DNA of 64,000 bases from Escherichia phage AV124. Each line of letters begins with the position of its first letter. The first letter of the stretch is position 1. A program made the position numbers and the translations under genes. The DNA is taken from the sequence record OR352954, one strand, 5' to 3'. The notes beneath the pieces are model-generated. The model saw nothing but the letters and a program-made list of their open reading frames with translations, had not been told where the DNA came from and searched no databases. Below, piece by piece: positions 1,894-30,230 of the stretch.

Positions 1894-2670
1894 TTGAGGC
1901 GTTTAATTGTTATTAGTGGCGCTGGTTTCTCTGCCGAGAGTGGTGTCCGTACATTCCGTACAGATACTGACTCCGGTAAAGCTCTGTGGGATGAATACGA
2001 CCTTGAGGAGGTTTGTAACATACACGCCTTCCGTGGTAACTTCTACCATAAAACGCACATGTTTTATAACAAGCGTCGTGCAGAGTTACCAACGGTACAT
2101 CCGAATGCGGCGCATCTTCGCGTGGCTGAGTGGTACAAACGTTATCCTGGGCAGGTTGTTAACATGACGACTAACGTTGATGACCTTCTGGAACGTGCGG
2201 GTGTCCCTAAAGAAGATACTCTTTACATACATGGTTATCTGAAAGAGATCCTTGTTAAAGATGCTTTCACCAAGAAGATAAAGGTTGTCGATATTGGTTA
2301 CGACCAAATTGATCCTGATGATTATGATTGGTGTAAACCAAACGTAATTTTCTTTGGTGAAAATGCCCCGGCGTATGGACCTATGTATGATACCTTAGAG
2401 TCCTTGACAAACCAAGATCTTGTAATTGTTGTTGGTTGCTCAAACACGGTAATCAACTTCAACTGGGAGTTGTTCCCTGCGGTTGTGCGGGGGACTAAAG
2501 TTGTTGTTGTCAATCCTGCTATTAGGTATGATGAACAAATGATGTATGAGAATGCGGGTGTTCTTGTATATCGTACCGGAGCTGTTGATGCCTTTAATAA
2601 TCCCGGCCTTATCAAGATAGTTGAGAATCACCTTGAAGGTAAGACACCATTGCAAAGCAAGGAGAAATAA
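1894..2670 (+). CDS. Sir2-family NAD-dependent deacylase / ADP-ribosyltransferase-like protein
   Basis: GAGFSAESGVRTFR (Sir2 GAGISxxSGIPxFR), NVDDL, IHG, PNVIFFGE motifs. Confidence 0.65.
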   Translation: MRRLIVISGAGFSAESGVRTFRTDTDSGKALWDEYDLEEVCNIHAFRGNFYHKTHMFYNKRRAELPTVHPNAAHLRVAEWYKRYPGQVVNMTTNVDDLLERAGVPKEDTLYIHGYLKEILVKDAFTKKIKVVDIGYDQIDPDDYDWCKPNVIFFGENAPAYGPMYDTLESLTNQDLVIVVGCSNTVINFNWELFPAVVRGTKVVVVNPAIRYDEQMMYENAGVLVYRTGAVDAFNNPGLIKIVENHLEGKTPLQSKEK

Positions 2671-8322: not shown

Positions 8323-8517
8323 ATGATCCGCACAAAAATTCTTATCGCAGCATTGCTGCTATCTTCTCCGGTATTCGCGACTGTAAACACTCTTGATTTG
8401 GTTGATGAATACACCGACGGAAGTTCTAAAGTCTGCATCTACAGCGACGGTAATCGCACAGAATCTGTTCTGAAAGAAGGTGCTGGTTCTTGTCCAAGTA
8501 AGAAAACATTTCATTGA
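8323..8517 (+). CDS. small secreted protein
   Basis: N-terminal signal peptide MIRTKILIAALLLSSPVFA. Confidence 0.45.
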   Translation: MIRTKILIAALLLSSPVFATVNTLDLVDEYTDGSSKVCIYSDGNRTESVLKEGAGSCPSKKTFH

Positions 8518-8521
8518 GGCA

Positions 8522-9031
8522 ATGATGCGAGTAACTGATAAATACGTATTCTTCTTCACATACCGGGATATGTTCAGTAATCACTACCGCCAAGTTATTC
8601 CTATTCGTTGTGGTGGTTACGAGTTTTTTACTGTAGAACATTACATGATGTTCCAGAAGGCAATGCTCTTCGATGACAAAGAAATTGCTTCCCGCATCGC
8701 TACGGTTGATAACCCGAATGAGGCCAAAGCTCTTGGTCGTCAGGTAAAAGGTTTCGACAACAGCGTCTGGGAAGAGAATAGAATGGATATTGTGACTTCA
8801 GGCCTTGTATTGAAAATGAAGGCCAACAGGTCTGTTCTGGAAGCGGCGCTTGGGCATCGGGATGCTGGTCGTAAGTTTGTGGAAGCCTCCCCTTATGATG
8901 CCATCTGGGGTGTTAAATTAAACGAATATGACACACGTATCGATGACCCAACCAACTGGCGGGGTTTGAATCTTCTCGGTGAGTGCTGGGAACGAGCTAT
9001 TGATATTGTTGTTGCTGCAACGTGGAGGTGA
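8522..9031 (+). CDS. NADAR / YbiA-family protein (predicted ADP-ribose N-glycosidase fold)
   Basis: FSNH, TVEHYMMFQKAMLF, PNEAKALGR, DAIWG motifs colinear with YbiA family. Confidence 0.6.
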   Translation: MMRVTDKYVFFFTYRDMFSNHYRQVIPIRCGGYEFFTVEHYMMFQKAMLFDDKEIASRIATVDNPNEAKALGRQVKGFDNSVWEENRMDIVTSGLVLKMKANRSVLEAALGHRDAGRKFVEASPYDAIWGVKLNEYDTRIDDPTNWRGLNLLGECWERAIDIVVAATWR

Positions 9032-9470
9032 TTTGAAATTAGAGATTGAACTAGTTCCAAAGACCGCGTGGTTTACTAATCTCCGATCTCGTCTCCCCAA
9101 AGCCCAGTGGGATGTTGTCAGAAAGAAGTGTTATGAGAAGGCCAATTATCGATGTGAAATCTGCGGGGGTAAAGGAACAAAACACCCTGTTGAATGCCAT
9201 GAGAAGTGGAATTTCGGAGACGGTAAGATAACTCTGATAGGTCTAATCGCGCTATGTCCTTCCTGTCATGAAGTCAAGCATATTGGTTTGGCAGGGATCC
9301 GTGGGCGGGGTGAAATTGCCCTTCGTCACTTTATGAGAGTGAATGAAGTGAGTCGCCATGTGGCAGAGAAATATGTTAAGGAAGGGTTTGATTTGTATCA
9401 TGAACGAAGCAAGCGCGAAAAGTGGGAATTGGATGTCCGGTATTTGGACGAGTATTTGAGTAAAGATTGA
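8979..9470 (+). CDS. HNH endonuclease
   Basis: CEICGG ... HPVECHEKWNF ... CPSCHEVKH zinc-finger HNH motif; start uncertain. Confidence 0.6.
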   Translation: MSAGNELLILLLLQRGGDLKLEIELVPKTAWFTNLRSRLPKAQWDVVRKKCYEKANYRCEICGGKGTKHPVECHEKWNFGDGKITLIGLIALCPSCHEVKHIGLAGIRGRGEIALRHFMRVNEVSRHVAEKYVKEGFDLYHERSKREKWELDVRYLDEYLSKD

Positions 9471-10012
9471 GAGGGCTAGTGGGTGATCGTGAGATTGAAG
9501 ATTTAAGGAGATGCCTTACATACGACCAATCAACCGGAATGTTAAGATGGAACAGTCGTCCAAGAGAGGATTTCAAATTCGATTGGACGTTCGAAAATTG
9601 GAATTCGAAGTGGGCTGGTAAGGAAGTAGATAGCATCGGAAATACAGGTTATTATCGCTTCTCTCTTAACTACAAGAGATATCTTGCACACAGAGCTATT
9701 ATAGCCATGACATACGGTTATTGGCCTTCTGTAGTAGATCACCTAGATGGTGACAAGTTGAACAATAGACTTAGTAATCTAAGGGCAACCACCCAGGCTG
9801 TCAACATGATGAATAAGTCAGGCTACAAAAACAATACCTCTGGTGTTACAGGAGTACACAAGAGAAAGGATAATGGTAAATATTCTGCATCGGTAGTCTT
9901 AAATGGCAAGAGAAAACATCTTGGCACTTTTGACACTATTGAAGAAGCCATTCGTGTTAGAGAAGAAGAACTTTCCAAGAGGGGGTTCTCCTCCTCTCAT
10001 GGAAGTTTCTGA
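9467..10012 (+). CDS. HNH homing endonuclease with AP2 domain
   Basis: HR...VDHLDGDKLNNRLSNLR HNH_3 motif then AP2-like GVTGVHKRKDNGKYSASV...LGTFDTIEEA. Confidence 0.65.
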   Translation: MRGLVGDREIEDLRRCLTYDQSTGMLRWNSRPREDFKFDWTFENWNSKWAGKEVDSIGNTGYYRFSLNYKRYLAHRAIIAMTYGYWPSVVDHLDGDKLNNRLSNLRATTQAVNMMNKSGYKNNTSGVTGVHKRKDNGKYSASVVLNGKRKHLGTFDTIEEAIRVREEELSKRGFSSSHGSF

Positions 10013-22620: not shown

Positions 22621-24699
22621 GTGAAGGTTGTTAAAAGAGATGGACGTGTTGAAGATTACTCGGCTGAGAAAGTGACACGAGCGGTGAAAGCCGCTCTGTT
22701 AGCCTCGGGTCTTGACCAGGAAGTGGCTGATGAGAAGGCCCGTGGAATTGCTCAGAGAACCTTCAGCCTCTTCATGGCGACCCCTGTACGAAGTGTGGTA
22801 GATTTTCACCGGGAGGTTGAAAACCTCCTGATGGAAGACCCTGATCTTCGTGACGCTGCTCGCTGTTACATAGAATACCGTCATGACCGTGACAACGCTC
22901 GTGAAGGAAAAGGAAAACTGTATGCAGACATCACTGGATTCTTGGATCAATCGGCTGAAGAGTTTACCCGCGAGAATGCCAATAAACCAAGTTCCATCGT
23001 AAACACGCACAGGGACCTCTTAGCGGGGATTTTGAGTAAGCATGTGGCATTGACCCAGATACTTCCCAAAAACCTCTCAGAATGGCATACAAGCGGCTAT
23101 GGGCACATCCATGACCTTGATTACCTGGTAAGCCCTCTGACGAACTGTTGCCTGGTGAACTATCGGGACATGTTAGAGAACGGGTTTAAGATCGGTAATG
23201 CCCAGATTGAGAAACCAAAATCAATCGGTGTGGCTACCACGGTCTTGACCCAAATCATCCAGGCGGTTGCCTCAAGTCAGTATGGTGGGCAGACCTGCGC
23301 CCATATTGACGAGGGACTCAAGCAATACGTCGAAATGAGCTTCATGAAGAACGTGAAGCAGTACCGAAGTCACCGCAATGCATACGGCCCGACCAACAAG
23401 TTGGTGTACGATGCGATGCAGACCCTGATCTACCAGGTGAATACACTGATGAGCGTCAACGGTCAATCGCCGTTCATTACCATCAGTTTGGGGCTTGACA
23501 CCTCCATGTTTGGGCGTATGATTACTGCAAACTACTTGAAAGTCCACAAAGAAGGGCTTGGGAAGGACAAAGTAACCCCGGTATTCCCGAAGGTTGTGTT
23601 CTTCCTGCAAGAAGGTGTGAACATGAACCCGGAAGACCCGAATTACGATCTGAAACAGTTGGCTATGGAATGTTGTGTAGAGCGAATCTACCCGGACTTC
23701 ATCTCTGTCCCACTGAATAAGGAAGTCACTGGGTCAGCGGAAGGCAAGGTCACGAGTATGGGTTGCCGATCATTCTTGTCTAAATTCACCACGGAAAATG
23801 GTGAAAAGTACGACGGAAGGTTCAACCTGGGTGTTGTGTCGGTGAATCTGCCGATGATTGCTGCCGAAGCGAAGCAGAAAGGCGAGAGATTCTTCCCACT
23901 GCTCCGTTATCACATGGACATGGCCTATGAAGCGCATATGGTTCGTGTGAAACGGCTGATGGATGTGAAGGCATCTCAAAACCCGACTCTGTTCATGGAA
24001 GGAGCGCTGGCCCGGTTGAGACCTGATGAGCCGATCAGTAAGCTGTTCTTCAACGGTTATGCATCGATCAGCATCGGATATGTCGGCCTGGCGGAGGCTG
24101 TGGACATCCTCAACGGCAAAGAGGACAAGGAATATGCTATGGGAATCCTCGGGTACATGAAACTGGTGTGCGATGAGTACAAAGCCATGACGAACCTGTC
24201 TTTCAGCCTTTATGGGACGCCTGCGGAGAGCTTGTGCTACCGCTTTGCCACCAAACTGAAAGAAAAGTTCCCTAACTTCATAGAGAGGGATTACCTGACG
24301 AACTCTTTCCACCAACCTGTCTGGGTGCACAGCGATCCTTTCAGTAAGTGGGACTACGAATCGGGCTTTGCAAACATCAGTAATGGTGGAAACATTGGAT
24401 ATGTGGAAACTGCCAATTTGCGTGACAACTTGCTGGCTCTTGAATCCCTGATCGATTATGGGTACAAGAAGATTCCTTACTTCGGAATCAATCAGCCTGT
24501 GGATCAGTGTCTTAAATGCGGTCACAGTGGTGAGTTTACCGCCACGGCGAAGGGTTTTGAATGCCCGGCCTGCGGAAACCACGAAGAGGGGACGCTTTCG
24601 GTTATCCGTCGTGTATCTGGGTATTTATCTGCACCCAATTCTCGACCTTATAACAAAGGGAAGATGCAGGAAGTGGTTCAGCGGGAGAAACATCAGTGA
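22621..24699 (+). CDS. nrdD: anaerobic ribonucleoside-triphosphate reductase
   Basis: Glycyl-radical motif RVSGY and C-terminal CxxC...CxxC zinc ribbon; GTG start. Confidence 0.85.
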   Translation: MKVVKRDGRVEDYSAEKVTRAVKAALLASGLDQEVADEKARGIAQRTFSLFMATPVRSVVDFHREVENLLMEDPDLRDAARCYIEYRHDRDNAREGKGKLYADITGFLDQSAEEFTRENANKPSSIVNTHRDLLAGILSKHVALTQILPKNLSEWHTSGYGHIHDLDYLVSPLTNCCLVNYRDMLENGFKIGNAQIEKPKSIGVATTVLTQIIQAVASSQYGGQTCAHIDEGLKQYVEMSFMKNVKQYRSHRNAYGPTNKLVYDAMQTLIYQVNTLMSVNGQSPFITISLGLDTSMFGRMITANYLKVHKEGLGKDKVTPVFPKVVFFLQEGVNMNPEDPNYDLKQLAMECCVERIYPDFISVPLNKEVTGSAEGKVTSMGCRSFLSKFTTENGEKYDGRFNLGVVSVNLPMIAAEAKQKGERFFPLLRYHMDMAYEAHMVRVKRLMDVKASQNPTLFMEGALARLRPDEPISKLFFNGYASISIGYVGLAEAVDILNGKEDKEYAMGILGYMKLVCDEYKAMTNLSFSLYGTPAESLCYRFATKLKEKFPNFIERDYLTNSFHQPVWVHSDPFSKWDYESGFANISNGGNIGYVETANLRDNLLALESLIDYGYKKIPYFGINQPVDQCLKCGHSGEFTATAKGFECPACGNHEEGTLSVIRRVSGYLSAPNSRPYNKGKMQEVVQREKHQ

Positions 24700-25169
24700 A
24701 CTTCTGTGGATATGAACCCGTAGATTTAGTGAATGGAGAGGGAGTTCGCTGCTCCCTCTGGGTCAGCGGGTGTAGCCACGGTTGCCGTGGATGTTTTAAC
24801 CAGAAAGCTTGGTCATACACCTACGGTAATGAGTTTACAGCAGCACAATTGGAGAGGCTCATTGCTGATCTCGGCCGCCCCTTCGTGAAAGGGCTGTCCG
24901 TTCTGGGAGGGGAGCCGCTTGACCCGCAAAATGTTGATTCTGTTATCGAAATCCTGACTTCCGTCAGAGATTTTTACGGTGACAAGAAGGATATCATGTT
25001 GTGGACTGGTTACAAATTCAGCGAAGTTCCGGAACAAGTGAAGAATCTGGTTGACATAGTGATGGACGGCAAGTATGATGAATGCAATCCTACTACAAAA
25101 CGGTTCAGAGGATCGGACAACCAGAAAATGTGGACAAAACAAAACGGTAAGTGGATAGAGGAGAAATGA
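24696..25169 (+). CDS. nrdG: anaerobic RNR activating radical-SAM protein
   Basis: CSHGCRGC (Cx3Cx2C); ATGA overlap with nrdD. Confidence 0.8.
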   Translation: MNFCGYEPVDLVNGEGVRCSLWVSGCSHGCRGCFNQKAWSYTYGNEFTAAQLERLIADLGRPFVKGLSVLGGEPLDPQNVDSVIEILTSVRDFYGDKKDIMLWTGYKFSEVPEQVKNLVDIVMDGKYDECNPTTKRFRGSDNQKMWTKQNGKWIEEK

Positions 25170-26273: not shown

Positions 26274-27062
26274 ATGGGAAGAAGCAAAGAGGCTCGTGCA
26301 ACCAAACTCAGCGTTCGCCAGCAACAACGTGCTGAGAGACAAGCCAAGCACCACCCTAAATTCGATGAGGAAAGGAATAGCGCTCCACCGCTGACTCCTC
26401 TGAATGACAAGCAGCAAGATTACCTTCACAAGTTGCAAACTTGCAATATTGTTATCGCAAAAGGTATCTTCGGTACAGGTAAAACTTACCTAGCATCGGC
26501 CTACGCTGCTGATCTGCTCCGTAAGAATGAACTCGACAAGATCATTGTCGCTCGTCCTTATGTGCAGACGGGTAAAACCTCCGGCTTCAAACCGGGAACA
26601 TCGTTGGAAAAACTCTTCCCGTATGTTCGTAACATGTTAGACACCATCCGTAAACGTATGGGCGACGGTGCCTATTACAATGCGCTTAAAGATGGTCTGA
26701 ATGGGCGTATTGAAGTTCAGGAATTGGAAAGCATCCGTGGTCGTTCATTCGATGAAAGAAGCTATCTCCTGATCGACGAAGCCCAGCAGAGTACCCCAGA
26801 GGAAATGTTGAGTATCATCACACGTATCTCTGACAACTGTACACTCGTAGTTATGGGGGATGCCTCTCAGAAAGATATCCACGGCATCTCCGGTCTGGAG
26901 TGGGTGGAAGATTTCCTGAGCCGGAACGGGATCGCGGGTGTGGGTATTGTAAACTTCGACAACCCAGATGATGACATCGTCCGTGGTGGTATGGTTCGTG
27001 ACATTGCCAAGGCGTTAATCGCCGACCGTGCAGAAGGACGCTATACTCCACTGGCTTCGTAA
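26274..27062 (+). CDS. phoH: PhoH-like ATPase
   Basis: Walker A GIFGTGKTYLA; colinear PhoH-like layout. Confidence 0.8.
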   Translation: MGRSKEARATKLSVRQQQRAERQAKHHPKFDEERNSAPPLTPLNDKQQDYLHKLQTCNIVIAKGIFGTGKTYLASAYAADLLRKNELDKIIVARPYVQTGKTSGFKPGTSLEKLFPYVRNMLDTIRKRMGDGAYYNALKDGLNGRIEVQELESIRGRSFDERSYLLIDEAQQSTPEEMLSIITRISDNCTLVVMGDASQKDIHGISGLEWVEDFLSRNGIAGVGIVNFDNPDDDIVRGGMVRDIAKALIADRAEGRYTPLAS

Positions 27063-27071
27063 CGGAGGATT

Positions 27072-27710
27072 ATGGCTTATTATACAGGCGTGGGGTCAAG
27101 GGAGGCCCCTCCTGAGGTTATCAGCATCATGGAAGATGCTGGTTTCCGCCTTGCAAGGTGCGGATTCACCTTGAGAAGTGGAAAAGCAGGTGGCGCAGAT
27201 GAAGCATTCCAAGTCGGAATGCAAAAATATTACGAATCTCTTGACAATGGGAAGCAAGAAGAGTATCGTACACATTTGGCGGAGATCTATATCCCCTGGG
27301 ATGGATTTGCATCTGACAATGACAATCTCTGGGATTTCTGGGATTATCCTTTAGATTATCTTGATTATCTGATTCCCGACCAAAAGGTTGTACGTGAGGC
27401 ACTGGTTGAGGAGATTCATCCTAATTTTGAAGCTCTTAAAAGAAAAAGAGGAGCTTTTGCGCTCCATTCTCGTAATGTGCATCAAGTCTTGGGGGCCAAT
27501 ATCCTCGATCCACGTCCCTCTGCATTTTGTTTGTACTATGCCAAAGAAGATAGGAACGGAAATCCTAAGGGAGGTACTGCAACCGCAGTTAATTTAGCCA
27601 GAAAGTACGGAGTTCGGGTTCTTAACCTGAACACACCCGATAAACTAGCCTTGTTGGAGAGGTTCTTAAGGTCCTTGGAGGAAAAACGTGGCATCCAGAT
27701 TTCGCGATAA
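27072..27710 (+). CDS. DprA/Smf-like Rossmann-fold protein
   Basis: TGVGSR...SGKAGGADEAF...HSRNVHQVLG...GGTATAVNLARKYGVRV parallels DprA motifs. Confidence 0.45.
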   Translation: MAYYTGVGSREAPPEVISIMEDAGFRLARCGFTLRSGKAGGADEAFQVGMQKYYESLDNGKQEEYRTHLAEIYIPWDGFASDNDNLWDFWDYPLDYLDYLIPDQKVVREALVEEIHPNFEALKRKRGAFALHSRNVHQVLGANILDPRPSAFCLYYAKEDRNGNPKGGTATAVNLARKYGVRVLNLNTPDKLALLERFLRSLEEKRGIQISR

Positions 27711-27999
27711 GCTTAATAATTCTTATTGTCTCGTTAAAGTGGATGGACAGGGCTGGTCAGTTGGTAAAATCGGTAACAAAGTGATTTTCATTACTTACAA
27801 GGATGGTGGGATGAGAAACATTTGTAATACGGATGATACTGATTTATTCAGATACTTCCTGGAATCCATTGAGTACCAAAGTAAGCGAGAGTTATTCGTT
27901 GGTGACAAGGTGAACATTGACAAGTTCGGGCCGTACTATGTGGTAGATATTGGTCACCGTGAGAAAGACGGAAGTATTAAGTACCTTATAGCTCGATAG
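27688..27999 (+). CDS. hypothetical protein
   Basis: ORF. Confidence 0.4.
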   Translation: MASRFRDKLNNSYCLVKVDGQGWSVGKIGNKVIFITYKDGGMRNICNTDDTDLFRYFLESIEYQSKRELFVGDKVNIDKFGPYYVVDIGHREKDGSIKYLIAR

Positions 28000-28006
28000 G
28001 AGGAGT

Positions 28007-28501
28007 ATGACAGTTAGTATTCATGGGATTCTTTCCCATCGGAGACTGATGGAACTGAAGAATTGTAGAGTCGTCGAGCCTGAATTTTTCGAGTCCGAGG
28101 TGACAAAGTATTACAATCTCTATCTGAAGGTTGTGGCTGAGTCACTTTATAAAATGAATGACGGGTTCTTCACCCGAATGATTTATAGCCGTCCCGCTGC
28201 CGAGCGGGATGCCTCTTGGATGTTCCCGGATCGTCGTGACCTGCTGGAGCATTTGATTTACCTGGATGGGAAATCTCAGTACGTGAGTTTGACCAAAGAA
28301 GAGCTTAACCACTTTACGCTGTTGCATCAGGCAGCAGTAGCCTCAGAACGCGCCAAAAGGGTTCTTCTGTGCTTTAAGTACAGCGATCAAGTCCTTGTGG
28401 ATGATGATTCAGGGTTCAATATAGACTGGTTGTTACGGAATGCATACACATTACGACAACTGATTGTAGACGCGAATGGGGAGACACAAGATGCAGAATA
28501 A
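28007..28501 (+). CDS. hypothetical protein
   Basis: ORF with GGAGGAG RBS. Confidence 0.45.
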   Translation: MTVSIHGILSHRRLMELKNCRVVEPEFFESEVTKYYNLYLKVVAESLYKMNDGFFTRMIYSRPAAERDASWMFPDRRDLLEHLIYLDGKSQYVSLTKEELNHFTLLHQAAVASERAKRVLLCFKYSDQVLVDDDSGFNIDWLLRNAYTLRQLIVDANGETQDAE

Positions 28502-29408
28502 CGACAAAAAGAATTACTTTGGTTTCGGTGGGGGTTTTGGTGGGGAAGGTTCTTTCTGTTACCCAATGCCATCCCATGAGCATGTAATCTACATCCACGA
28601 TTTGGATTATATGGAAGATCACTTTAATAAATTACAACAAATTCGCCAAGCCAATCCCGACGATATGGTGCGTGTGATCATCAATACCTATGGTGGTCGT
28701 GTTGATATTGCAATGGCTTATGTGAGCGCGATGCGTGAGAGTCAAGCAACCGTGGTGACCCATGCAGAGGGGCAGGTGTGTTCTGCTGGGACAATCTTGT
28801 GGTTGGCTTGCAAAGAACGCACTGTAGCCCCGATGACGGAATTCATGTTCCACAACTATCAGGGAGGGGCATATGGAGACGGGGCCAATATCTATACCCA
28901 GGTGCTGTTCTACAAACAGCATTTCGATCGTTTAATCGATTATTTCTACAAGGGTGTTTTGACTGATGGGGAGATCAATACAATCAAGGGTGGTGGGCAG
29001 GTATGGCTGGATGAAGTGGAGATTACTAAAAGAACCCGTGCAGTAATCCTGGATGATAAAAATATCGAAAGGATGAAGTCAGGTAAAAATCCTATCGTAA
29101 ACCCCACTGGAAAACAGGCGGAGAAGGTTGCGGAGGAGAGTGTTGTTGGGACTGACGCTGAGAAATCAATTTGCTTGAAAGTGCATGTTGATGGGGAGGT
29201 TTTCTCTTTTGATGTAAGGACTCTAAAAGCCTCGGATTTCGATTCCTTTAATATTGACGAGATACAGAGTATTCTGTCACAGGTTGGTGCCTTGGCCCAA
29301 GGTGAGGAAGAACCTTTGGAGATTACCTCTCGTGATCGTAAGGCACTTATCGAAGCTATGCTTACAGCAGCTCAAGTAATAGTTGATACATACGGAGAAG
29401 ACGCATAA
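28491..29408 (+). CDS. ClpP-like (S14/S49) serine peptidase
   Basis: INTYGGRVDIAMA, GQVCSAG (Ser), MFHNY (His) in ClpP-like order. Confidence 0.5.
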   Translation: MQNNDKKNYFGFGGGFGGEGSFCYPMPSHEHVIYIHDLDYMEDHFNKLQQIRQANPDDMVRVIINTYGGRVDIAMAYVSAMRESQATVVTHAEGQVCSAGTILWLACKERTVAPMTEFMFHNYQGGAYGDGANIYTQVLFYKQHFDRLIDYFYKGVLTDGEINTIKGGGQVWLDEVEITKRTRAVILDDKNIERMKSGKNPIVNPTGKQAEKVAEESVVGTDAEKSICLKVHVDGEVFSFDVRTLKASDFDSFNIDEIQSILSQVGALAQGEEEPLEITSRDRKALIEAMLTAAQVIVDTYGEDA

Positions 29409-30091
29409 TGAGTGCTCCCCTGAAGAAAAAGGGGGAGCGTAGGGATTATGACGTCTATGAGACTCCTGAATGGGCCGTACAGGCCCTTTTGGATGTTATC
29501 CCTATCAACCCATCATGGACATACCTAGAGCCTTGTAGAGCGTCTGGGAGGTTCTATAATCACATGCCTCTCGGTTCAGCTTGGGGTGAAATTCGTGAAG
29601 GTGTAGATTATCTCAGTACCGATTATCCAAATCATGTTGATTGCATCATCACTAATCCTCCATATTCGTTGGCCCAAGAGTTTGTGACAAAAGCTCTTGA
29701 CGATGCCGATGTTGTGATTATGCTTTTGCGGTTAGGATTCCTTGAGAGCATGAAACGCTGGGAATGGTGGCAAGAGAATCCTATCACCAGTTTGATGGTG
29801 TTGTCTCAAAGACCATCGTTTACTGAAGATGGTAAAACAGATGGAAGTGGCTACGCTTACTTTGTTTGGGATAGAAAGAACAGGCTGAATCTTAAGCCAT
29901 TTTATTTTTTGGAGGGACAAGACGATGAGTGCCGCAAGCAAGATGCGAGGGATCGCAGAAATCGCAAACGCAGCAATCCCGCCCGAGATGAACCAGTTGT
30001 ACGACAACATGGTGGAGGGGATTCACCAATGTGCCAAGAAGGGACTTTTGGGGATGGGGATGGTGATAGATCTGCCGGATCACCTGCTTGA
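29408..30091 (+). CDS. N6-adenine DNA methyltransferase (C-terminal boundary uncertain)
   Basis: Motif I LEPCRASGRF, motif IV IITNPPYS; low-complexity Arg/Asp/Gly tail overlaps next ORF. Confidence 0.55.
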   Translation: MSAPLKKKGERRDYDVYETPEWAVQALLDVIPINPSWTYLEPCRASGRFYNHMPLGSAWGEIREGVDYLSTDYPNHVDCIITNPPYSLAQEFVTKALDDADVVIMLLRLGFLESMKRWEWWQENPITSLMVLSQRPSFTEDGKTDGSGYAYFVWDRKNRLNLKPFYFLEGQDDECRKQDARDRRNRKRSNPARDEPVVRQHGGGDSPMCQEGTFGDGDGDRSAGSPA

Positions 30092-30203
30092 TTATTTGCC
30101 TCATATTATTGCTGATCTTCGTGGTGGAGGTTTCGAGGTTGATGTCGTAGAAGTTGAACCCTCTATGCAAGGCATTAGAGCACGATTGTATATTACATGG
30201 TAA
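29925..30203 (+). CDS. hypothetical protein
   Basis: ORF ends immediately before strong terminator; overlaps MTase frame by ~167 nt. Confidence 0.45.
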   Translation: MSAASKMRGIAEIANAAIPPEMNQLYDNMVEGIHQCAKKGLLGMGMVIDLPDHLLDYLPHIIADLRGGGFEVDVVEVEPSMQGIRARLYITW

Positions 30204-30230
30204 ACCTGCTTCGGCAGGTTTTTTTTTTTC
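30203..30230 (+). terminator. rho-independent terminator
   Basis: aacctgc-ttcg-gcaggtt hairpin followed by T10. Confidence 0.7.

Follow-up and report, generated by a model that had tools for sequence, protein, structure and literature searches.

In the 64,000-nucleotide stretch of DNA from Escherichia phage AV124 analyzed here (sequence record OR352954; hereafter the window), the gene at 27072..27710 (+ strand, ATG start), the sole long open reading frame (ORF) at its position, encodes a stand-alone protein of 212 amino acids (aa) of the DprA clade of the SLOG superfamily, assigned to the family PHROG 768. The locus raises the question of what a phage gains from a protein resembling DprA, which binds single-stranded DNA (ssDNA) and loads RecA. 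The initial annotation had proposed that the phage copy could channel recombination or, alternatively, belong to the nucleotide-binding Rossmann families of conflict systems, and the second proposal fits the evidence better. We tentatively hypothesize that the protein would be a DNA-directed module, gripping a nucleotide or ssDNA and working with ADP-ribose-removing enzymes against DarT-type defense, and we place this reading first among those weighed below.

The homology of the protein to DprA is remote but real. The PHROG 768 profile matches it over nearly its entire length (E 2.2e-62, 211 bits; residues 1-209 against profile positions 3-189 of 191), whereas the Pfam family DNA_processg_A (PF02481) reaches 15.7 bits (E 0.0086) over residues 7-46 only, below its gathering cut-off of 29.6 bits and with no full-length match to this ~200-residue domain. 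The NCBIfam scan assigned the protein to no family, and a phmmer search of the PDB sequences with the protein alone returned only noise matches to proteasome ATPases. Nevertheless, weak DNA_processg_A matches recur in 43 of 47 diverse family members scanned singly (best E 6.8e-6), three distant members (P0091, P0094 and P0119) carry a precomputed PF02481 match, and 10 of the same 47 show weak matches to the SLOG family LDcluster4. Searched against the PDB sequences, the family profile had a single match, to the DprA of R. palustris (3maj, E 0.08, 40 residues), and the hhalign comparison of the family with five DprA domains (H. pylori, S. pneumoniae, R. palustris, ShosA and E. coli Smf) gave 78.8% probability and an E value of 1.7e-5 over 134 columns that span the whole fold. 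Likewise, the AlphaFold2 model of the protein (mean predicted local distance difference score, pLDDT, 95.7; predicted template modeling score, pTM, 0.92) is a single domain, a five-stranded Rossmann-like alpha/beta fold that carries inserted helices around residues 77-125, and displays the Rossmannoid three-layer sandwich, the polar/Gly-rich loop after strand 1 and the GxD/E after strand 2 that define the SLOG superfamily (Smf/DprA-LOG; Burroughs et al. 2015). This extended Rossmann fold is closest to the solved DprA structures, and the other SLOG proteins follow in a shallow gradient of scores (MoCo carrier 13.7, TM1055 13.0, LOG 12.6, ShosA 12.4, YpsA 11.3, ThsA-SLOG 11.2), with which Foldseek agrees; the fold matches in BFVD are all uncharacterized or named 'DprA-like'. 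The description as a DprA/Smf-like Rossmann protein is thus borne out by the PHROG 768 assignment, the recurrent weak Pfam matches and the hhalign result, and profile comparison leads to DprA, not to an unrelated Rossmann family. The protein belongs to a separate family within SLOG, whose nearest characterized relatives are the DprA domains.

The three strings from which the relationship was first proposed, GSR (residues 8-10), SGKAGGADEAF (residues 36-46, 27177-27209) and HSRNVHQVLG (residues 132-141, 27465-27494), are all present and, in an alignment of 262 family members to which all conservation values given here refer, hold the most conserved positions of the family and are not chance strings. 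G8-S9-R10 (27093..27101, + strand, as are the following features of the gene) corresponds to DprA motif 1 (G-S/T/A-R), with G8 and R10 at 99.6% and S9 at 96.6%. The Gly-rich loop after strand 2, R35-S-G-K-A-G-G-A-D43-E-A-F46..G49 (27174..27218), contains the GxD/E signature of SLOG (PMC6459960) and corresponds to the SGxAxGxDxxA pattern of DprA; R35, G37 and D43 are 100% conserved, and A39 and G41 99.6%. The segment L131-H132-S-R134-N135-V-H-Q138-V-L-G141 (27462..27494) corresponds to DprA motif 2 (F/L/Y-x-x-R-N/D), with L131 at 92%, R134 and N135 at 100%, and the additional family invariants H132 (98%) and Q138 (100%), followed by G141 (100%). Finally, the loop after strand 4, G167-G168-T169 (27570..27578), is invariant. 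The order of these elements, G-S-R, SGxAxGxD, L/F-x-x-R-N and a G-rich loop after strand 4, is that of the DprA domain (4LJK, 4LJR, 3MAJ).

In the hhalign mapping, motifs 1 and 2 align to G50-R52 (GTR) and F140-N144 of H. pylori DprA (HpDprA), R10 falling on R52, the gate of the base pocket, L131 on F140, R134 on R143, N135 on N144 and, beyond the motifs, G168 on the pocket residue G164. In DprA, these two motifs identify the ssDNA-binding domain and form a small pocket for one ssDNA base, the isolated H. pylori domain is sufficient for ssDNA binding, and R52E and R143E substitutions decrease the affinity ~315-fold and ~173-fold, respectively (Wang et al., PMC3950713). Because R10, L131, R134, N135 and G168, the five base-pocket residues common to DprA and the phage protein, are all invariant or near-invariant, the alignment indicates that the DprA nucleobase pocket is preserved in the PHROG 768 family. 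In contrast to DprA, the family has invariants of its own (R35, F46, W76, H116, H132, Q138, T169 and N185), two of which belong to a family-specific segment between strand 3 and the RN helix, W76-K125 (27297..27446; W76 97%, F79 94%, H116 97%), strongly acidic in this phage (charge -7.1 over residues 77-125). Isoelectric point (pI) and charge do not discriminate as a test of DNA binding, the median pI of the family being 8.3, that of the phage protein 5.87 and those of DprA domains 5.75-9.2.

The company kept by the family is the second line of evidence. A hidden Markov model (HMM) search of 1.84 billion cluster representatives (50% identity) recovered 6029 proteins at E<=1e-3, of which 2290 also pass E<=1e-30; the majority are stand-alone and 170-210 aa long. 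With tblastn, a homolog was located in 1259 of 50,697 phage records (~1 in 40), mainly from large lytic phages that infect Pseudomonas, Klebsiella, Escherichia, Vibrio, Aeromonas and Acinetobacter, where it is labeled hypothetical or DprA-like. By its fusions, six with NADAR and four with DUF4326, the family fits the viral network of SLOG, NADAR, Macro and DUF4326 domains that was predicted computationally by Iyer et al. 2022. NADAR (PF08719) lies N-terminal to SLOG in P0106 and P0164 and C-terminal in P0260, P0223, P0121 and P0122, so that the fusion exists in at least two independent arrangements (both orders, six proteins); P0223 also carries DUF7831, and P0121 and P0122 are giants of ~1480 aa that contain additional SLOG domains as well as YAcAr and LDcluster4. 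DUF4326 is fused on either side of SLOG (P0184, L139, L097, L137), and no Macro fusion was found in the sampled family members. Other fusions involve DNA enzymes, namely a PD-(D/E)XK nuclease in the bacterial protein L133 and an SbcC/Rad50-like ATPase in the bacterial protein L140, a single ORF of 1338 aa. SLOG domains of the family are also borne by polyvalent-type giants of 1475-1581 aa, the largest being a viral protein of 1581 aa (L085) in which the domain is embedded in such an architecture.

Gene neighborhoods were compared at 83 viral loci, representing 45 lineages at 60% target identity, by clustering every ORF up to 10 kb away from the gene, and at 80 bacterial loci, representing 29 lineages, the bacterial contigs being profile-scanned with a 12-sequence alignment. 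In bacteria, a Macro domain protein is the only neighbor found in more than 4 of the 29 lineages (7/29), and it adjoins SLOG in three of them, in tight modules of DarG-type Macro, SLOG and DUF4326 (L097, 7517..9314; L098, 7659..9196; L142, 7962..9040). This bacterial Macro neighbor has matches to 5m3i (E 7e-31) and 5m31 (E 6e-28), macrodomains of DarG, the DNA ADP-ribosyl glycohydrolase antitoxin of DarTG systems; the Macro proteins on the phage side are more distant, but still match DarG and TARG1-type macrodomains. No DarT-like toxin was recognized by eye around the L097 and L142 modules, no DarT profile having been run. In the 481-aa L097 protein, a region of ~130 aa between SLOG and DUF4326 is without assignment, and its sequence (…LTNMS…YPDSEAAYQALK…) recalls that of NADAR, although Pfam detects none. 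The largest bacterial lineage is that of the sphingomonads (L101 and 36 other loci, lineage group 23), in which the surrounding block, read from translations, includes DUF736, an SOS-response-associated peptidase, the ssDNA-binding protein SSB and a MucR/Ros-type protein, and looks like a conjugative element.

In phages, Macro is a neighbor in 8 of the 45 lineages, within 3 kb in six and upstream on the same strand in seven; if positions were uniform in +/-10 kb, six of eight within 3 kb would have a binomial p of ~0.01, by our own estimate and with no genome-wide background. Nampt-like (7/45) and PRPS-like (6/45) genes are found as well, several lineages having the order PRPS-like, Nampt-like, Macro, SLOG, and DUF4326 and NADAR are neighbors in two lineages and one lineage, respectively. 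The other recurrent neighbors are PhoH (13/45, always upstream, within 5 kb, and overlapping or abutting the gene in three), a metallophosphatase-like protein (12/45, assigned by eye, with no Pfam match) and a ClpP-like protease (9/45).

In AV124, SLOG and NADAR, fused elsewhere, are both encoded, as separate genes. The NADAR gene lies at 8522..9031 (+ strand; ORF 8480..9031, likely start 8522), matches the Pfam NADAR profile with an E value of 9.4e-35 (120.7 bits against a cut-off of 35.1 bits) and was matched by the NADAR half of the fusion P0260 in tblastn (E 7e-29). Phage NADARs, including one from the Vequintavirinae Bas60-62, strip ADP-ribose from DNA and counter DarTG1 (PMC11257639, a preprint of the LeRoux laboratory). 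The N-terminus of the window NADAR, MRVTDKYV, resembles MRITDKYV, the translation of the primer used to clone NADAR-Bas60 (PMC11257639); the likeness is limited to the translated N-terminus, since the exact primer sequence is not found in the window. Homologs 40-48% identical to the window NADAR occur in E. coli phages of ~145-151 kb, and the window gene is probably an ortholog of the tested Bas60 NADAR. GenBank relatives label the homolog of the window NADAR 'hypothetical protein' or, wrongly, 'GTP cyclohydrolase II'. The two ORFs that directly follow it, at 8979..9470 and 9467..10012 (+ strand), have, respectively, an HNH-type character (CxxC...CPSCH motifs) and the look of an HNH/AP2-type homing endonuclease, and may be mobile insertions. 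The window also contains a Sir2-family gene at ~1897..2634 (+ strand), 57% identical to a SIR2-annotated gene of L006. A close relative, phage VLCpiM5b, likewise has a Sir2 gene, and its Nampt-like and PRPS-like genes, which may form a pair for NAD+ reconstitution, lie immediately upstream of the part that corresponds to the window; between Sir2 and the gene studied here, the window is ~4.7 kb longer than VLCpiM5b.

Based on these observations, we hypothesize that the protein would most likely grip a base or nucleotide, possibly an ADP-ribosylated one, on single-stranded phage DNA, and would there recruit, present substrate to, or otherwise assist enzymes of the NADAR, DarG-type Macro and DUF4326 kinds, so that DarT-type ADP-ribosylation would be cleared and replication could proceed. 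In AV124 the putative partner is the separately encoded NADAR at 8522..9031, since NADAR and SLOG are fused in other organisms. We favor a DNA-directed activity because the nearest relatives of the family bind ssDNA through the same pocket, because the partner enzyme types have been proven on ADP-ribosylated DNA, because the other fusions are with DNA enzymes (PD-(D/E)XK, SbcC-like) and because SSB and other ssDNA proteins abound in the mobile-element contexts. Given the two invariant histidines, catalysis besides binding, by cutting a glycosidic or a phosphoester bond, would also be possible.

Several observations weigh against a DNA-directed partner of ADP-ribose-removing enzymes. The NADAR fusions amount to ~2% of the family members seen, and at least one NAD/ADP-ribose gene lies within 10 kb in only 13 of the 45 phage lineages, a count for which there is no genome-wide background. 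In the window itself, the gene has as its immediate neighbors PhoH, a ClpP-like protease and two functionally unassigned proteins, none of them an ADP-ribose enzyme, and NADAR is 18 kb away, as a separate gene. At the level of the pocket, no counterpart can be assigned to the HpDprA residue Y108, hhalign being unreliable in the inserted segment. Finally, the Nampt-like and PRPS-like neighbors and the other SLOG precedents fit a soluble ligand equally well, as ThsA binds 3'cADPR, an isomer of cyclic ADP-ribose (cADPR), and LOG hydrolyzes AMP derivatives.

This last point leads to the alternative that we rank nearly as good, a possible role as sensor, sponge or hydrolase of soluble ADP-ribose (ADPR) derivatives, such as a cADPR isomer, ADPR-1''-P or a related signal or toxin, by which the protein would blunt Thoeris-like or other NAD+ defenses and feed NAD+ reconstitution. 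A prediction of this kind was made explicitly in a computational study of viral SLOG proteins (Iyer, Burroughs, Anantharaman and Aravind 2022, PMC9503650), which describes them as mostly stand-alone, enriched in large phages, co-occurring with Macro, NADAR and Nudix, and having Macro, NADAR and DUF4326 as fusion partners and, more sporadically, HTH, HNH, exonuclease and helicase domains, and proposes that they sense or cleave soluble ADP-ribose derivatives, calling them experimentally uncharacterized. Those proteins share with PHROG 768 the NADAR and DUF4326 fusions, the Macro neighbors, the bias toward large phages and the mostly stand-alone form, and judging from architecture, not from accession numbers, they are most likely the same family; our literature searches found no experimental study of PHROG 768. 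The gene order PRPS-like, Nampt-like, Macro, SLOG, the presence of Nampt-like, PRPS-like and Sir2 genes in VLCpiM5b and of Sir2 in the window, and the invariant polar residues R35, H116, H132 and Q138, which resemble a specific ligand-binding or active site, all agree with a soluble ligand, as does the likeness to the ThsA SLOG domain (7UXS) and YpsA (2NX2), which belong to the same superfamily and share the GxD/E loop and a pocket for nucleotides or ADP-ribose derivatives. In contrast, whereas the 2022 study places viral SLOG mainly in a 'YpsA-like clade' with soluble cADPR-type signals, here DprA is nearest and Macro is of the DarG (DNA) type; the nearest relatives, DprA and ShosA, bind ssDNA and their base-pocket motifs are retained, the fused or adjacent NADAR and DarG-type Macro are of kinds that act on ADP-ribosylated DNA, the further fusions are with a PD-(D/E)XK nuclease and an SbcC-like ATPase, and the catalytic Glu of the LOG motif PGGxGTxxE is absent, the phage protein reading KGGTATAVN.

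A more specific and rather doubtful version of the DNA-directed reading is that the protein represents an undescribed reader in DNA de-ADP-ribosylation, derived from DprA, which would flip an ADP-ribosylated base, or the adenine of ADP-ribose, into the ssDNA pocket and then pass the lesion on to an enzyme of the NADAR or DarG-type Macro kind, or cleave it by means of H116 and H132.

It is also unlikely, to about the same degree, that the protein is a true DprA-like mediator, the role that the label 'DNA recombination-mediator protein' implies. It would bind to the ssDNA of the phage and there load or help the host RecA or a phage recombinase, or serve as an auxiliary ssDNA binder. The retained ssDNA-binding motifs and the sufficiency of the H. 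pylori domain for ssDNA binding are compatible with such a role, and so is the location of the gene in a block for replication and nucleotide metabolism that includes ribonucleotide reductase (RNR), thymidylate synthase, a deoxynucleoside monophosphate (dNMP) kinase and NrdD/NrdG, the homolog at L008 adjoining a DNA polymerase A gene. Moreover, ShosA (from ShosTA; 8ZVA, 9VZO), which has a DprA-type domain and acts in phage-bacterium conflict, binds ssDNA and RecA, and the DprA/Smf copies of jumbo phages have been proposed to be extra ssDNA binders (Iyer et al. 2021). The parts of DprA that engage RecA are, however, those that the phage family does not keep. The acidic triad through which S. 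pneumoniae DprA (SpDprA) binds RecA is E235/D243/E265 (PMC4066776), and although E235 and D243 align without gaps to family positions 174 and 182, in what is a remote alignment, the former is mostly N/K/R (Glu in 18 of the 262 members) and the latter P/R/K (Glu in 7). E265 and the dimer/RecA zone (SpDprA 249-275; HpDprA P183, L196 and F205) lie beyond the alignable region, and the single C-terminal helix of the family is poorly conserved. The phage protein consists of the core SLOG domain, with neither SAM nor DML1 (a single AlphaFold2 domain in 212 aa and no other Pfam match), domains that are not universal among DprA proteins, and its DNA_processg_A score is half the gathering cut-off. No recombinase is a recurrent neighbor or fusion partner in the 45 phage and 29 bacterial lineages, the partners being NADAR, DUF4326 and DarG-type Macro instead. 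Accordingly, the suggestion that the phage copy loads RecA or channels recombination finds no support, and on residue-level comparison the protein is probably not a RecA loader. ShosA itself differs from the phage protein in its length (~320 aa), in being an above-threshold DprA homolog (E 7e-20 to E. coli Smf), in its need for RecA binding and in its phosphoribosyltransferase toxin partner.

Quite improbable is the reading of the protein as a nucleotide phosphoribohydrolase of the LOG kind, or as some other housekeeping enzyme of the block for deoxynucleoside triphosphate (dNTP) supply. The location of the gene in a block with RNR, thymidylate synthase, dNMP kinase and NrdD/NrdG and the weak LDcluster4 matches in 10 of the 47 members scanned would fit, but there is no match to Pfam Lysine_decarbox/LOG, the residues K166-G-G-T-A-T-A-V-N174 replace PGGxGTxxE and its Glu, and the motifs present are those of DprA. 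Least probable of all, a decoy that mimics the ShosA/PsyrA antitoxins and keeps the ShosT/PsyrT toxins silent would be in line with weak PADLOC matches (PsyrA E 0.007, ShosA E 0.01) and with the orphan antitoxin-like genes known in phages, but the matches are marginal (~13 bits, ~40 residues), ShosA neutralizes ShosT via ssDNA and RecA, without direct binding, through a RecA interface that is not conserved here, phosphoribosyltransferase toxins are not part of the fusion or neighborhood pattern, and no phosphoribosyltransferase or RecQ-like toxin adjoins the gene.

Regarding the local layout, the gene is preceded by a Shine-Dalgarno sequence, GGAGGA (27064..27069, + strand, read from the sequence), 2 nt 5' of its ATG, and by the gene for a PhoH-like ATPase (26274..27062, + strand; phrog_170, E 1e-74), whose stop codon occupies 27060-27062. 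The gap of only 9 nt to the ATG suggests that the two genes are co-transcribed; as to function, the juxtaposition with PhoH is conserved synteny only. Downstream, a gene of PHROG 5456 (27688..27999, + strand, function unknown), for which a GTG start gives a 23-nt overlap with the 3' end of the SLOG gene and of which a shorter version is annotated in VLCpiM5b, is followed by one of PHROG 7224 (28007..28501, + strand, assigned by PHROG match, function unknown). Further along, a DNA methyltransferase ORF of 227 aa (29408..30203, + strand; phrog_799), with a low-complexity C-terminal tail rich in Gly, Asp and Arg, overlaps a 92-aa ORF in a different frame (29925..30203, + strand; phrog_12158). Between 24500 and 30500, the promoter scan returned 9 sites against 8.6 expected in shuffled sequence, so no promoter can be assigned, and the only strong-looking terminator is a hairpin followed by a T-run at 30202-30221. 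Upstream of phoH, ORFs read by eye, with no profile run, as NrdD (692 aa) and its activase NrdG (157 aa) occupy 22621..25169 (+ strand); the counterpart of this stretch in VLCpiM5b is annotated otherwise, as NrdA/NrdB, 'virion structural protein' and thioredoxin.

Over the 3 kb around the gene, identity is 96-97% with phages of Klebsiella, Raoultella and Proteus that belong to Mydovirus, a genus of the Vequintavirinae to which the window is likewise assigned; these are rV5-like myoviruses of ~145 kb, including P8734, VLCpiM5b, KB57 and Mydo. In several GenBank relatives the ortholog is named "DprA-like DNA recombination-mediator protein", the PHROG 768 label as applied by a pipeline; as far as annotation goes, the finding is thus not new, and the gene of AV124 is one ordinary, conserved representative of a family that had been recognized before. 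With regard to function, the label 'DNA recombination-mediator protein' is probably misleading. Four GenBank records (OY978784, OY979426, OY978796 and OY757067) are ~96.5% identical over the same 3 kb, and their listed features are unrelated (tail spike, baseplate, nicotinamide-nucleotide adenylyltransferase/PnuC), which suggests that their feature tables are offset from the sequence. Likewise, a protein 86% identical to that of AV124 (cluster P0003) is named in NCBI/UniRef as a hypothetical protein of Staphylococcus haemolyticus, probably through contamination or mis-assignment, since the contigs that carry it, of ~148 kb, are like those of this enterobacterial phage.

What this analysis adds to the existing label is a specific link of the family to DarG-type Macro proteins and to phage NADARs of a class that has been validated by experiment, together with residue-level evidence that argues against RecA loading. 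If the protein does work with NADAR and DarG-type Macro enzymes, it would be part of the phage toolkit against DarTG-mediated ADP-ribosylation of DNA or other NAD+-derived defenses, with consequences for the host range of phages and for selecting therapeutic Klebsiella phages, and its function is directly testable, because anti-DarT assays exist for a NADAR of the same phage subfamily. Were it in addition a reader of ADP-ribosylated DNA, the known anti-DarT factors would be joined by a third type, carried by ~2.5% of sequenced phages, and there would be a biochemical rationale for a DprA pocket that is conserved like an active site.

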